Below, piece by piece: positions 8,755-45,547 of a DNA stretch of 45,547 nucleotides. The notes under the pieces were generated by a model that was given only the letters and a program-made list of their open reading frames with translations, was not told the origin of the DNA and searched no databases. The stretch covers positions 12,410 to 57,956 of the forward strand of contig JBBDKG010000020.1 of the NCBI GenBank assembly GCA_040879435.1, written 5' to 3'. The position numbers were made by a program, and so were the translations under genes. Positions within the stretch are counted from its first letter, which is position 1. Every line of letters begins with the position of its first letter. This stretch comes from Minisyncoccota bacterium. Lineage in GTDB: Bacteria > Patescibacteriota > Minisyncoccia > Phycocordibacterales > UBA918.

Positions 8755-8774
8755 TGTGTATAAGGTGTGTATAA
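8755..8774. promoter_or_regulatory. Two tandem perfect DnaA boxes upstream of dnaA
   Basis: TGTGTATAA at 8755-8763 and 8766-8774 (reverse complement TTATACACA, fits TTATNCACA). Confidence 0.8.
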
Positions 8775-12070: not shown

Positions 12071-12747
12071 AACGTAAGCGAAAAACGATCCTTCACATAC
12101 TGGCCGAATGCAGAGCCGCTTCGAAGCGAGAACTCAATAAGGATCTGTCCCGATCCACCGGTTCTCCGCAGGGTAAGCATAAGCGGGTCGCCCTCCCCGC
12201 CCGTGTGACGGCTACCGTCGACACGCCACAGTAGTTCGTGTGGATCTGAAAGTATGTCAGCACTCATAAAGAACGGCTCGGCCCGTACATTCGTCTCGTC
12301 CCCCGTGAACAGGTGAGTGTCACCCACCGCAATCCGGGAGATACCACGCAGCAGGTTCTGTTCATAGAATGCGACCAATGGCTCGCTCTGCGAAACATAC
12401 TGCTCATCGTTCCCTACGTCCCTTCCTGCTGCATCACGGACGTCGACACGGATGAGGAAATCGTTTCCAAGCGGTGCCGGAAACTGAATCACCTGCCCTG
12501 TCTGGGGTAACAGGTTGCCGTTCAGTTCCCAACGGTAGGCGGCTTGTTCGGAGCCGGCCATTCCACTTACTGCCGCAATTGCGCGCACATCGCTACCGAC
12601 CGAGGGTTCATGTCTGCCTCGGTAGAACACCGGTGCGGTCGTGTCGGCCTCAATGATAATATCGACCCTGCTTTCAACGGTTTGGGCAAATACTCCGGCC
12701 GGAAGTACGAGAGAAAGAACGGAGAGTGATATAAGCAGTGGCTTCAT
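12067..12747 (-). CDS. Secreted hypothetical protein (Ig-like folds likely)
   Basis: Signal peptide; YRWELNG and LLWRVDG Ig/PKD-like strands; overlaps the pilin start by 4 nt. Confidence 0.7.
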   Translation of the reverse strand: MKPLLISLSVLSLVLPAGVFAQTVESRVDIIIEADTTAPVFYRGRHEPSVGSDVRAIAAVSGMAGSEQAAYRWELNGNLLPQTGQVIQFPAPLGNDFLIRVDVRDAAGRDVGNDEQYVSQSEPLVAFYEQNLLRGISRIAVGDTHLFTGDETNVRAEPFFMSADILSDPHELLWRVDGSRHTGGEGDPLMLTLRRTGGSGQILIEFSLRSGSAFGQYVKDRFSLTF

Positions 12748-41953: not shown

Positions 41954-42745
41954 ATGAAAATATACTCGTGGAACGTAAACGGCATTCGCGCGGTGCATCG
42001 AAAGGGTTTGTTTGAGCCATTTATCAAGGAACACCAACCAGATATCCTGTGTCTGCAGGAAACGAAGGCGGAGCAGGACCAATCTCCCGTGGAACTATCC
42101 GAATATGACGAATACTGGCATTCTGCAGAGAAAAAGGGCTATTCCGGCACCGCTATCTTCACCAAAATAGCCCCTGAAAATGCACTATACGGCCTCCCAG
42201 ACGAAGTGAAAGAAGCGTATGACCTCACAGACTCATACGGAGATACGAGTGCCGAAGGGCGCGTAACAACACTTGAATTGGAAGGATTCTTTATAAGTTC
42301 GGTCTATACACCGAACGCAAAGGACGACCTCTCCCGTCTTCCGGTACGACAGCGATGGGACGCTGCGTACCTTGCATACATGAAACAGCTTTCTAAGCAG
42401 AAACCAGTGATATTCTGCGGGGATCTCAATGTGGCACATACGGAACAGGATCTCGCTCGCCCCAAAGAGAACAAAGGGAAGAAAGGATTCACTGAAGAGG
42501 AACGCGATGGCATCGACAGTATGCTTGATGCAGGATTTACGGATAGCTTCCGCTTGTTCCACGAAGGCAATGGACACTACACATGGTGGTCACACTTCGG
42601 TCACGCACGCGAACGGAATGTCGGGTGGCGCATCGACTATGTGATGGTCGCAAAGGATCTGGTGCCTGTGGTGAAGAAAGCGGCGATCCATCCGGATGTA
42701 TTTGGCTCCGACCATTGTCCTGTATCGGTGGAATTAGCGCTCTAA
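41954..42745 (+). CDS. xth: Exodeoxyribonuclease III / AP endonuclease
   Basis: SWNVNGIRA, LQETK, GYSGTA, GDLNVAH, GWRIDY, GSDHCP. Confidence 0.96.
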   Translation: MKIYSWNVNGIRAVHRKGLFEPFIKEHQPDILCLQETKAEQDQSPVELSEYDEYWHSAEKKGYSGTAIFTKIAPENALYGLPDEVKEAYDLTDSYGDTSAEGRVTTLELEGFFISSVYTPNAKDDLSRLPVRQRWDAAYLAYMKQLSKQKPVIFCGDLNVAHTEQDLARPKENKGKKGFTEEERDGIDSMLDAGFTDSFRLFHEGNGHYTWWSHFGHARERNVGWRIDYVMVAKDLVPVVKKAAIHPDVFGSDHCPVSVELAL

Positions 42746-42782
42746 ATAAAGGGTGTCTTTTATCAAGGACACTTAAAGACAA

Positions 42783-42839
42783 CTATCCACAGTTATCCCC
42801 ACAACTGTCCTTTACCTTCCCCTCTCTAGGACATACTAT
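42783..42839 (+). promoter_or_regulatory. Two DnaA-box-like 9-mers followed by a putative sigma70 promoter
   Basis: CTATCCACA (42783-42791), TTATCCCCA (42793-42801), TTTACC-N17-TACTAT (42811-42839). Confidence 0.55.
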
Positions 42840-42845
42840 AGTGAC

Positions 42846-43236
42846 AGGCCAGAAAGGCAGGCTACTCAATCGACAAAACGTTTTCGATTGAAGCCTAAAA
42901 CAGTTCGTTCCACAGTAGTGTTAGAATACCTCCACTAATCTAACAAAATGTTCACAACAACCCCACCCTTATAAAAGTTCATAGCAATGGCGTGAGCCGC
43001 GAAGAGAACCGAATTATAAAAGACATTCGATCCTCCTCCCGGCTCACTCCTTCGCAACTCCCACAAATGAACTTACACGTAGAGCCGACAAACAGGCTGA
43101 CCCCGTCCTTTAGGACTTAAAAGCGGGCGCCACTTGAGGCTCCAACAGCCTCACACATGTAAGGCTCTAGTCACCCCAAAGGCCCGGAAGTCAGGAAACA
43201 AGCACCCGCTTCGATCTTGACTCCCGGGCCTTTTTT
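42846..43236 (+). ncRNA. Candidate structured ncRNA (~390 nt)
   Basis: Non-coding gap between convergent genes with at least seven stems, A/C-rich linkers, an upstream promoter and a GC hairpin plus T6 at the 3' end. Confidence 0.6.
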
Positions 43237-43237
43237 A

Positions 43238-44710
43238 TTACCCCACCTTGTGACTTCGCTCAATTGATTTGATCGCGGCAGCTTCCTCAGCTTCCTGGCG
43301 TTCCTTCCCTCTGTTCGCCAGCTCTGCAAGGGTCGAATCATCCAGTTTTTGTAGCTCTAATACGCGGTCTTTGAGAGTTTCATACGTGTTCTTTCCCGGA
43401 TCGTCCAAAACTTCCTCCAGCAGTGTGTGTAGCATGTATCCTAGGCGTTTTCCTGGTTTTTCGCCGGTGATATCCATGATCGTATCCCCTTTTATGGCGA
43501 GCATCTTGACTGAAATTGGATCACGCATAGCCTGATCCACCATCGCTTTGTATTTCCGGAAGCGGAACGGCTGTTCCTTCGGTCGTCCGGTACCGATGCG
43601 GTCGCAGATACGCAGGTTCAAGAGATCCTCGATATGCTCCTGCCCCACTCTGGTTATGGTGCGACGAACTGCAGCGAGGGTGACCTCATCAGGATCCGAG
43701 AAGAACATATGCAAGCGAACCAGTTTTTCAATGAGATCGCTCATTTCACGACTTACCTTCAAACGTTTCAGGATCGCACGGGTCATACGCGCACCGATGA
43801 CCTCGTGTCCATGGAAGGTCCAGTCTTTCTTAGCGTCGCTCCACTGTCTCGAGGCAGGTTTGCCGATGTCGTGAAGCAGCGCTGCAAGGCGCAACTCAAG
43901 CGAGAAACCCTTGTCGGCAGCAGCCTGGGCGGTCCGCAGGAGGTGTTCGTATACGTCAAACGCGTGTGCCTGGTTCTGGTCACACCCGATCGCCTCTTGT
44001 ATCTCGGGTAGGATGTGCGAAATGAGGCCAAGGCGCTCGAGAAACGCAATACCCTGCATCGGCGTGTCTGAATTGAGGATACGAAAAAACTCATCACGGA
44101 TCCGTTCTGTTGAGATATGGCCAAGAAGATCACTATTCTCACTGATTGCGGTCATTGTCTCCGCTTCGATGGCAAAATTGAGCTCAGCGGCAAGGCGCAC
44201 GGCACGCATCATACGAAGCGCGTCCTCATTAAAACGGTCGGTCGGGTTCCCTACCGTCTTCAGCCGTTTTTTTGTGATATCCCCTGCCCCGTCAAAGAGG
44301 TCGACCAATGACTCATCCTTCAGACGGAACGCGATCGCGTTTACCGTGAAATCACGGCGTTTCAGATCTTCTTCGAGCGATACTCCGAACTCAACCTTAT
44401 CCGGTCGTCTGCGGTCCGTGTATTCCGATTCACTCCGGTATGGCGTGACCTCAACCACTCTCACCCGTTCGTCACTCGCCTCTTCGTTCACGACCCCCAC
44501 CGTTCCGTAGTCGTTGTTGCAGTAGCTGTCTGGGAACAGCTCCTGGATCTGCTCAGGGGCAGCGTTCGTGGTGATATCCCAGTCTTTCGGCGTTCGGCCG
44601 ATCAGAAGGTCGCGCACGCACCCACCCACGAGGTACGCTTCATACCCCGCAGCTTCGAGCGTGTCTGCAACGAACTGGACTTCGGTCGGTATGTCTGCTC
44701 GTACGATCAT
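43238..44710 (-). CDS. cca: CCA tRNA nucleotidyltransferase with HD domain
   Basis: VGGCVRD, DWDITT, DLKRRDFTVNA, EDALRMMRA, ALLHDIGK, FHGHE. Confidence 0.93.
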   Translation of the reverse strand: MIVRADIPTEVQFVADTLEAAGYEAYLVGGCVRDLLIGRTPKDWDITTNAAPEQIQELFPDSYCNNDYGTVGVVNEEASDERVRVVEVTPYRSESEYTDRRRPDKVEFGVSLEEDLKRRDFTVNAIAFRLKDESLVDLFDGAGDITKKRLKTVGNPTDRFNEDALRMMRAVRLAAELNFAIEAETMTAISENSDLLGHISTERIRDEFFRILNSDTPMQGIAFLERLGLISHILPEIQEAIGCDQNQAHAFDVYEHLLRTAQAAADKGFSLELRLAALLHDIGKPASRQWSDAKKDWTFHGHEVIGARMTRAILKRLKVSREMSDLIEKLVRLHMFFSDPDEVTLAAVRRTITRVGQEHIEDLLNLRICDRIGTGRPKEQPFRFRKYKAMVDQAMRDPISVKMLAIKGDTIMDITGEKPGKRLGYMLHTLLEEVLDDPGKNTYETLKDRVLELQKLDDSTLAELANRGKERQEAEEAAAIKSIERSHKVG

Positions 44711-44793: not shown

Positions 44794-45471
44794 ATGAGAG
44801 CATTAGTACAGGAAAGAGAAAAGGCAATTGCTTTGCGTAAGCAGGGGTACAGCTATAAAGAGATTCTTGCAGAGGTGCCAGTGGCAAAGAGCACCCTGTC
44901 ACTGTGGCTTGGTGACCTCCCGTTAACCAAGAATGAAAAGCTGGTACTAAAAGATCGCAAGAATGCAAATATAACTCATGGTCGCATTAAAGCTGCCTCA
45001 GAGTTGCGTAAACGTAGGCTAGAGCGAGAAGCATCATGGCTTGAGGAGGCAAGAGAAACTTTTTTTACACATAAACTTGATCCACTATTCCATACTGGGG
45101 TCGCTTTATACTGGGCGGAAGGTTCAAAACGGGTCAATCAGTGGAGTTTCATGAATTCTGATGAAGAAATGATACTTGTAATGGTCAAATGGTTGCATAG
45201 ATATGGAAAGATCAACACAAACGAGCTGTTTTTTCGTCTGTATGTCCACAAGCCATACGCACATGAAAACTGTGAAGAATGGTGGGCAAAGAAAATCGGC
45301 GTCCGAACAAATCAGTTCCTTAAGACCGTGTATAAACCAACGACGTTGGGGGTGAAGAAACGTCCTAATTATAAAGGTTGCCTGAGAATAGAGGTGCGAA
45401 AAAGCAAAGGTCTGTTATGCAAGATGCGCTTCTGGCAGAACATACTCGTTGAACATTACGCTAAAGGGTAG
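44794..45471 (+). CDS. HTH plus LAGLIDADG-like domain protein
   Basis: N-terminal HTH (AIALRKQGYSYKEI...VAKSTLSLWL), ALYWAEGSK, FMNSD, KGCLRI; more AT-rich; directly upstream of a tRNA. Confidence 0.65.
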   Translation: MRALVQEREKAIALRKQGYSYKEILAEVPVAKSTLSLWLGDLPLTKNEKLVLKDRKNANITHGRIKAASELRKRRLEREASWLEEARETFFTHKLDPLFHTGVALYWAEGSKRVNQWSFMNSDEEMILVMVKWLHRYGKINTNELFFRLYVHKPYAHENCEEWWAKKIGVRTNQFLKTVYKPTTLGVKKRPNYKGCLRIEVRKSKGLLCKMRFWQNILVEHYAKG

Positions 45472-45487
45472 TAGACTGCTCCACACT

Positions 45488-45547
45488 GCACCCGTAGCTC
45501 AACGGATAGAGCACTTGTCTTCGGAACAAGGGGTTGGGGGTTCGAGT
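45488..45547 (+). tRNA. tRNA-Arg(TCG), 3' end cut by the window edge
   Basis: GCACCCG acceptor 5' arm, GCTC/GAGC D-stem, CTTGT-CTTCGGA-ACAAG anticodon arm, GGTTCGAGT T-loop. Confidence 0.93.

Follow-up and report, generated by a model that had tools for sequence, protein, structure and literature searches.

The stretch of DNA analysed in this work, hereafter the window, comprises 45,547 nucleotides from the genome of a Minisyncoccota bacterium (GTDB lineage Bacteria; Patescibacteriota; Minisyncoccia; Phycocordibacterales; UBA918). It corresponds to positions 12,410 to 57,956 of contig JBBDKG010000020.1 (C20) in assembly GCA_040879435.1 (G000). Near its right end, two convergent genes leave a gap of 492 bp (42746-43237), which a first-pass annotation made from the sequence alone had put at about 490 bp. 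The gene on the left is an exonuclease III-type xth on the plus strand (41954-42745, stop at 42745; Pfam Exo_endo_phos, E 3.6e-33). The gene on the right, cca, lies on the minus strand (43238-44710, end at 43238) and encodes a CCA-adding or poly(A) polymerase-type enzyme with an HD domain (Pfam PolyA_pol head, RNA-binding, HD and tRNA_NucTran2_2 domains). Between them lies an element of about 390 nt (42846-43236), assigned to the plus strand by a promoter and a terminator that both face this way and by the ratio of G-U to A-C cells in its helices. This element is conserved and single-copy, its six helical elements P1 to P6 carry compensatory changes, and its ends are promoter-like and terminator-like. 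The evidence leans towards the gene of an uncatalogued, family-specific structured non-coding RNA (ncRNA) that is transcribed as its own unit and acts in trans.

In the promoter region (42806-42839, plus strand), the sequence TGTCCTTTACC contains a -35 element TTTACC (42811-42816), which is followed by a spacer of 17 nt and a -10 element TACTAT (42834-42839), as the first-pass annotation had read it. Both elements are kept in relatives: the -35 word GTCYTTTAM occurs at the same place in all 68 homologous loci, and a -10 word of the form TAnnnT in 68 of 68. Directly ahead of the -10 element lies the inverted half-site TAGGACA (42827-42833, plus strand), and a AAAGGACAT-like half-site holds this position in 57 of the 68 loci, the promoter being embedded in an inverted repeat TGTCCTTTA(C) ... 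TAAAGGACA. At the other end, the terminal hairpin (43178-43233) with its T6 run (43231-43236), which had also been noted before, was found again and covaries as P6. A hairpin-terminated 3' end followed by a T run or a T-rich run was likewise seen in the 65 relatives whose 3' end was placed correctly. The RNA would therefore extend from a start within 42844-42847 to the U tract. The distance between promoter and P1 is fixed across the 68 loci, whereas the xth stop codon lies 71-431 nt upstream, which fits a separate transcription unit. A conserved promoter of its own and an intrinsic terminator, the marks of an independent bacterial ncRNA gene, are thus both present at the level of sequence.

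Between 42840 and 43240, the plus strand folds to -133.5 kcal/mol (z = -9.08), a value equalled by none of 100 shuffles. All stems named in the first-pass annotation were found at their positions, and the six helical elements show the kept structure that is expected of an ncRNA gene. The 5' core (P1-P3) was tested on alignment A6, which has 73 rows, two of them antisense hits on P2 hairpins. In this alignment, 94.8% of the cells are paired compared to 72.3% in shuffles and 29-53% in slid controls, and 22 of 26 pairs have changed on both sides, with 307 such cells against 70.7 expected, all of these counts being biased upwards, towards structure, by the fitting of A6 to the model.

The core begins with the P1 hairpin (42848-42858), which reads GCC-AGAAA-GGC in the window and GCCC-AGARA-GGGC in the family consensus, one C and its matching G having been lost in the window's copy. 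In P1, 99.6% of the cells are paired and two of four pairs have changed on both sides. It is followed by P2 (42859-42896), a long variable hairpin AGGCU...UCAAUCGA / UCGAUUGA...AGCCU with 92.8-96.1% of the cells paired and two-sided changes in 16 of 18 pairs. At one P2 position, G-U is the most frequent pair (44 sequences), and some relatives have replaced the whole hairpin by GUC-GCAA-GAC. The single strand J2/3 (42897-42919; family consensus UAAAGAGNUCNUUCC), invariant or nearly so in alignment A5, leads to the P3 hairpin (42920-42944). Its 6-bp stem GUUAGA / UCUAAC covaries with forms such as UUGAGU/ACUCAA, and four of four modelled pairs have changed on both sides. The stem closes a loop of 13 nt, AUACCUCCACUAA (42926-42938), with ACCUCC at 42928-42933. 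A further conserved single strand, J3/4 (42945-42974), has the sequence AAUGUUCACAACA...CCCCACCC, of which the blocks GUUCAUAACA and CCCACC are kept in A5. These features and those of the 3' half described next all lie on the plus strand.

The shape of the P4 domain (42975-43074) differs between clades, and its pairing was evaluated on alignment A8 of nine sequences from the subgroup sharing the window's form. It comprises a closing helix AAGUUCAU/AUGAACUU (42975-42982 / 43067-43074) and an inner hairpin GUGAGCCG/CGGCUCAC (42992-42999 / 43040-43047) with an internal region GAAGAG / CCUCCUCC. Changes on both sides were observed for 16 of 31 predicted pairs in the nine sequences and for 9 of 20 in six sequences. 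For the 3' domain (P5 and P6), a plain MAFFT alignment (A7) was used, restricted to the 22 of 68 loci with a P5 domain of at most 175 nt and a clear anchor. Here, 92.8% of the cells are paired compared to 80.0% in shuffles and 31-56% in slid controls, and 26 of 33 pairs have changed on both sides against 12.4 expected. P5 is a multibranch domain (43080-43169) closed by UAGAGCC/GGCUCUA (43080-43086 / 43163-43169; family form GAGCYY/RRGCUC). Within it lie P5a, with CCC(C)..(G)GGG around GUCCU/AGGAC, and P5b, UGAGGCU/AGCCUCA, preceded by CGCCAC. Paired cells make up 96.9, 89.2 and 85.2% in the three helices of P5, where both sides have changed in 9 of 13 pairs. In P6 (43178-43236), a long hairpin interrupted by two conserved internal loops precedes U6; its helices are 97.7 and 89.5% paired, and 17 of 20 pairs have changed on both sides. 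This hairpin is an intrinsic terminator and probably also a functional arm of the RNA.

The first-pass annotation had further suggested a pseudoknot between AAGCGGG (43121-43127) and CCCGCUU (43205-43211) in the loop of the last hairpin. The complementarity exists in the window. In relatives, however, the pairing is not kept above the level of shuffles (47.6% paired vs 45.8%, with 172 of 500 shuffles as high), and an alignment-free check found at least six contiguous complementary bases in only 5 of 22 sequences, most of them within the shuffle range. The pseudoknot was therefore rejected. It is more likely that GCGGG (43123-43127) pairs locally with CCCC (43101-43104) at the base of P5a in the window.

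The distribution of the element was determined with homology searches of increasing sensitivity. Of 24 genomes of the genus searched with blastn, 5 gave weak matches, each of them in the gap between xth and cca. Two covariance models were then available: R1, representing the 5' part and built from 6 sequences, and the broader R2, representing P1-P3 and built from 43 sequences. With R1, searched against 128 genomes of the genus, the element was detected in 115; with R2, 131 of 151 genomes of the family were positive, and 9 of its 10 genera were represented. Both models report a single match per genome, with one exception in which the match is split into two adjacent pieces, and the window's own genome holds one copy. 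Outside the family, R1 gave no match within the order, R2 gave only two marginal matches (E 0.003 and 0.009) in 149 genomes from about 117 of the order's other families, and a further 150 genomes of the class gave none; these genomes are samples, and diverged forms may escape both models. A degenerate 21-nt P1 word was also searched in the whole collection; among the matches listed, 11 of 80 are true copies according to R2, and the others are chance matches, mostly in G+C-rich genomes. In the 68 loci, xth lies upstream on the same strand in 58 and cca lies convergent downstream in 50, both counts being limited by short flanks. The RNA measures 291-545 nt in the 65 relatives; loci with a wrong (L038, L042, L058) or missing (L049, L062, L079) 3' end were excluded from the work on length, open reading frames (ORFs) and the 3' domain.

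The most conserved unpaired stretch of the RNA is the P3 loop, (A)UACCUCCA(AAA), which resembles an anti-Shine-Dalgarno (anti-SD) sequence. CCUCCA is conserved to at least 90% in 43 rows, and visual inspection of 20 sequences from other genera showed ACCUCC in all of them. The 16S rRNA of the family carries GGAUUAAUUCCAAU in place of the ordinary anti-SD tail GGAUCACCUCCUUA and ends in ...GGAUUAAUUCCAAUUGG in 13 of 13 loci (L214-L226). As the window's own assembly has no 16S gene, these 3' ends were taken from relatives. CCUCC is absent from the 16S rRNA 3' end of 30 of 30 genomes across the order as well, each from a different genus (L227-L256). Loss of the anti-SD motif has been published for a subgroup of Parcubacteria, according to excerpts of PMC9297842.

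As a separate observation, the minus-strand leader of a small membrane-protein gene on contig C10 of the window's genome (50849-50895) reads UUUUUUGGAGGUUUAAAGGAGGUC and contains two GGAGGU words. The P3 loop in its family-consensus form, ACCUCCAAAAAA, is the complement of the first of these words including its U run. A gene for a protein resembling ribosomal protein bS21 (C10:51003-51245) adjoins this leader on the other strand.

To place the RNA among catalogued families, the window was compared with Rfam 15 (4227 families), which gave nothing at gathering score in this region. At E<=10, only six matches were obtained there, five to microRNA families and one to a snoRNA family, all far under their cut-offs, and neither the copies of 5 relatives nor 20 loci of other genera matched any family. 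No description of the RNA was found in the literature, supplementary files, which may hold 16S tails or ncRNA screens, lying outside the coverage. As far as Rfam 15 and the literature show, the RNA is new as a class. The first-pass annotation had proposed an independent, possibly unnamed RNA class, and this proposal is supported: the Rfam scan returned no known family, the homologue search returned family-wide copies with strongly covarying P1-P6, and the fixed spacing between promoter and P1 points to a unit of its own.

A very divergent housekeeping RNA, that is, a transfer-messenger RNA (tmRNA), a signal recognition particle (SRP) RNA, an RNase P RNA or a 6S RNA, would account for a single-copy RNA that is nearly universal in the family, and three of these four were not found in the window's own genome. 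Nevertheless, this explanation is largely refuted. The genome's own RNase P RNA (RF00010) lies on another contig (C10:89721-90080, 104.6 bits), and nothing of the kind was found at the locus, so this candidate was rejected. For tmRNA (RF00023), there was no Rfam match in the region at E<=10, and ARAGORN reported none in the window or in 21 contigs. Neither tmRNA (Rfam, ARAGORN) nor SmpB was found in the window's genome, which is 94% complete; this could be due to loss or to a missing contig. Two relatives, G022 and G004, carry the element together with a standard tmRNA (109.8 and 96 bits) located 120 and 77 kb away, and the element is therefore not a tmRNA; the other three of the five relatives searched gave weak tmRNA matches only. 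For 6S RNA (RF00013), neither the region nor the window's own genome gave a match. 6S RNA is rod-shaped, about 185 nt long and opened by a bubble at its centre, whereas the structure supported here is a chain of six hairpin or multibranch elements with no long 5'-3' closing helix, and 6S RNA was rejected on these grounds. SRP RNA (RF00169 small, RF01854 large) was not detected in the region, in the window's own genome or in 5 relatives, and the M domain of its partner protein Ffh (SRP_SPB) was found neither in the window's genome nor in any of the 5 relatives, two of which are single-contig genomes. Within the genus, the SRP54 GTPase domain stayed below its cut-off in all 13 genomes examined; in the order, 2 of 41 reached it, though only over profile positions 2-43, the P-loop. 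A motif scan found no Ffh/FtsY-like ORF. Since the partner protein Ffh is missing, the interpretation as SRP RNA fails. More broadly, Ffh, FtsY and SRP RNA were undetectable in the genus and in 40 other families of the order. Excerpts of PMC4508563 report Parcubacteria without ffh and ffs, and the missing SRP together with the missing anti-SD tail fits the Parcubacteria subgroup described in the available text of PMC9297842.

Three other explanations were weighed. A structured 3' untranslated region of xth, or a terminator region common to the convergent xth and cca, is suggested by the element immediately following xth, and sharing its strand, in 58 of the 68 loci and by the P6 hairpin abutting the cca stop codon in the window. 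We regard this as very unlikely, as the promoter-like block stays fixed to P1 while the distance to xth varies, the distance from P6 to the cca stop codon ranges from 13 to 848 nt in relatives and once reaches 1270 nt, with other DNA in between, and a covarying structure of about 400 nt far exceeds the needs of termination. It is even harder to credit that the functional product stems from the minus strand or is a small protein. The minus strand does fold stably, and ORFs of 42-43 codons exist in the window's copy. However, the helices contain more G-U than A-C cells, with ratios of 85:24 for the 5' core and 30:18 for the 3' domain in alignments that were built on the plus strand, and only this strand agrees with the promoter words and the U tract. 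Across copies, the longest ORF on the plus strand spans anything from 6 to 89 codons (median 41), and the alignment contains numerous indels whose lengths are not divisible by three, which makes a conserved peptide unlikely. The strongest competitor, in our view still rather unlikely, is that the RNA does not act by base pairing and is instead a protein-binding scaffold or sponge, for example with a bS21-like protein on the P3 loop. With 291-545 nt and six conserved helical elements, the RNA is far more elaborate than most base-pairing small RNAs (sRNAs); its composition is rich in A and C and poor in G, unpaired CCACC/CACCAC words recur in it, and the P6 internal loops lie at fixed places. 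A precedent exists in OLE RNA, which binds bS21 at an anti-SD mimic according to passages of PMC12054373, and 16 of 21 family genomes carry one bS21-like ORF each, including the window's own (C10:51003-51245, 80 residues, basic). All of these bS21 matches, however, remain below the Pfam cut-off (19-26 bits vs 27), the OLE mimic is paired inside a stem while the sequence here is open in a loop, and no protein gene is consistently co-transcribed with the RNA.

Several observations weigh against the interpretation as an independently transcribed ncRNA with a functional P3 loop. Transcription itself, like the start and the end of the RNA, is inferred, and a strict scan for consensus promoters and terminators listed neither the promoter nor the P6 hairpin, the latter because its terminator rule permits loops of 3-8 only. 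Of the 128 genomes searched within the genus, 13 gave no R1 match. Folding of the minus strand (-174.6 kcal/mol, z = -8.87) is as extreme as that of the plus strand, so folding energy alone gives no strand. The fitting of A6 and the plus-strand construction of the alignments behind the G-U test also count here.

For the loop, the window's own sequence ACCUCCACUAA deviates from the family consensus, and one relative has AUCUCC. CCUCC was lost from the 16S rRNA across the order, whereas the RNA was found in one family only, and the loop is thus no general answer to that loss. Among 276 long ORFs with crude start calls, no purine-rich Shine-Dalgarno peak precedes the start codons, which weakens a general Shine-Dalgarno role for the loop. 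The same ORFs show a -10-like TAnnnT at -12 to -7, and in 53% of cases the base at -1 is T; the missing peak and the position of this word suggest that the mRNAs of the window's genome are mostly leaderless. GGAGG is found 5 nt ahead of the ATG of ORFs with at least 100 codons in 31 cases compared to about 13 at other in-phase spacings, an excess that counts in favour of a role for the loop but is small, concerning roughly 30-35 genes. Finally, nothing connects the loop to any target.

In the explanation favoured here, that of a family-specific ncRNA acting in trans, transcription would begin at about 42846 from the TTTACC-N17-TACTAT promoter and end at the P6 hairpin and its U6 tract, possibly under the control of DnaA and a palindrome-binding factor. 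The product would act as a stable RNA or as a ribonucleoprotein (RNP), its helices holding out the invariant single strands, most prominently the P3 loop UACCUCCA but also the P1 loop AGARA, J2/3 and the CCCACC-containing J3/4. Base pairing of this loop with a GGAGG-bearing RNA is ranked as the most likely mode and is put forward tentatively, at less than an even chance. Binding of a protein that recognises such a sequence, for example a bS21-like protein, ranks next and appears more doubtful. It is improbable, though conceivable, that the RNA supplies an anti-SD in trans, which would recognise the few dozen mRNAs with a GGAGG left at Shine-Dalgarno spacing, or foreign GGAGG mRNAs from phages or transferred genes, and recruit them to the ribosome or silence them. 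If this were true, control through DnaA boxes would couple the level of such an RNA to the cell cycle.

The proposed control is based on two kinds of sites around the promoter. Two tandem 9-mers, CTATCCACA (42783-42791) and TTATCCCCA (42793-42801), both on the plus strand, resemble DnaA boxes and may be bound by DnaA. One or two words of the form TTATNCACA, the DnaA-box consensus, are present in 52 of 68 loci compared to 0.31 expected from shuffles, and the sites occupy fixed positions at -57 and -47 relative to the first aligned base. The genome's own dnaA, also located in the window, has two TTATACACA boxes upstream. Further upstream of the RNA lies an imperfect 20-bp palindrome GTGTCTTTTATCAAGGACAC (42753-42772, no strand assigned; family consensus TGTCCTTTATAAAGGACA), a candidate operator on the basis of its sequence and alignment. 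Like the two DnaA-box-like sites, this palindrome, of 18-20 bp, keeps its place ahead of the promoter. In relaxed form it occurs in 46 of 68 loci, and its half-sites are the same as those in the inverted repeat of the promoter. The palindrome is rare: in 31 genomes of the genus, each holds between 0 and 3 copies. One location is the RNA promoter, and the other lies 3-6 kb from it, next to a tRNA and a yraN-type (UPF0102) gene. Given the DnaA-box-like sites and the half-site palindrome at the promoter, it is proposed that synthesis of the RNA is probably set by DnaA and a palindrome-binding factor.

The second copy of the palindrome lies at a contig end in the window's genome (C13:87349-87368), with relatives' copies at loci L090-L093. 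In one relative it is accompanied by a cluster of DnaA-like boxes, and a short transcript of some 70 nt, closed by a terminator, appears to be driven by the copy at L092. A gene for a protein of 225 residues (44794-45471, plus strand) with a weak N-terminal helix-turn-helix (HTH_23, E 0.0037) is located between the two palindrome sites. It is kept beside cca in relatives and shares 26% identity with L091:4005-4676, whose helix-turn-helix is clear. On the basis of these sequence features, this protein is a candidate for the palindrome binder.

The DnaA-like boxes raised the possibility of a replication origin at the RNA locus, which was rejected. The cumulative GC skew of contig C20, a weak signal, turns near dnaA (about C20:21-25 kb) and not at the RNA (C20:55.2 kb), so the RNA locus is not the origin. 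Two perfect tandem TTATACACA DnaA boxes, 11 nt apart, lie on the minus strand at 8755-8774 (C20:21164-21183), and an ORF starting about 140 nt downstream on that strand has a DnaA-like N-terminus as judged by eye. The region around these boxes is probably the origin region, because the skew of the contig turns there.

Two further features were observed beside the locus. A tRNA gene on the plus strand (45488-45547) is cut off by the contig end and was recognised by Rfam (41.7 bits), being uncalled by ARAGORN. In several relatives, the space between the RNA and cca is filled by a repeated element of roughly the form ...GAGCGYAGCGACTAT..TGAA.TTATGCAG...GATTCGACC..., sometimes in 2-3 copies, which lies downstream of the terminator (L020, L026, L028, L029, L036, L040, L061, L072, L074, L076 and L088).

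Large ornate bacterial RNAs are rare, and each of them has opened a line of biochemistry. The RNA described here is a clean case: its promoter and terminator are defined, it occurs once per genome, and hundreds of compensatory changes back its structure of six elements. Its hosts are ultra-small uncultured Parcubacteria, which already lack SRP and the 16S anti-SD tail according to the available parts of PMC4508563 and PMC9297842. A costly RNA of about 400 nt that is retained in such small genomes likely matters to the cell. The invariant ACCUCC loop would offer a direct, testable link to how translation starts, or is policed, in these lineages, and the promoter with its DnaA-box-like sites and palindrome gives a way into gene regulation that is seldom available for the candidate phyla radiation. 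Although the class is new, the RNA may yet work in a familiar way, by base pairing or as an RNP scaffold.

Among known systems, OLE RNA (RF01071, Bacillota) is comparable in being large, multi-helix and single-copy, with conserved unpaired nucleotides and a CCUCC element, as far as the excerpts of PMC12054373 describe it. In the same excerpts, it binds bS21 at a CCUCCU element that mimics the anti-SD, which makes it a precedent for a large RNA using such a mimic. OLE RNA is longer, however (about 600 nt vs about 390 nt), shows no sequence or structure match to the RNA described here, with no Rfam match to RF01071 even at E<=10, and has its CCUCC paired inside a stem and not open in a hairpin loop; no oapA/B/C-like neighbours were seen beside the window's RNA. 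Moreover, since the 16S rRNA of the host is without CCUCC, the P3 loop copies nothing that the host ribosome still has, unlike the case of OLE RNA. The base-pairing sRNAs of the RsaE/RoxS type are likewise separate genes with their own promoter and intrinsic terminator, and their C-rich loops bind ribosome-binding sites, to which the exposed C-rich loop complementary to GGAGG corresponds here. Unlike them, the window's RNA is 3-5 times longer, has six conserved helical elements and belongs to a host without a general Shine-Dalgarno signal. The protein-sponge RNAs CrcZ and RsmZ/CsrB are similar in size, in the case of CrcZ (about 400 nt), and share the A/C-rich composition and several short unpaired repeats, here CCACC/CCUCC, whereas the words of the present RNA are few and differ from each other, and Rfam gave no match. 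With tmRNA, SRP RNA, RNase P RNA and 6S RNA, the RNA shares one copy per genome and a near-universal presence within its group.

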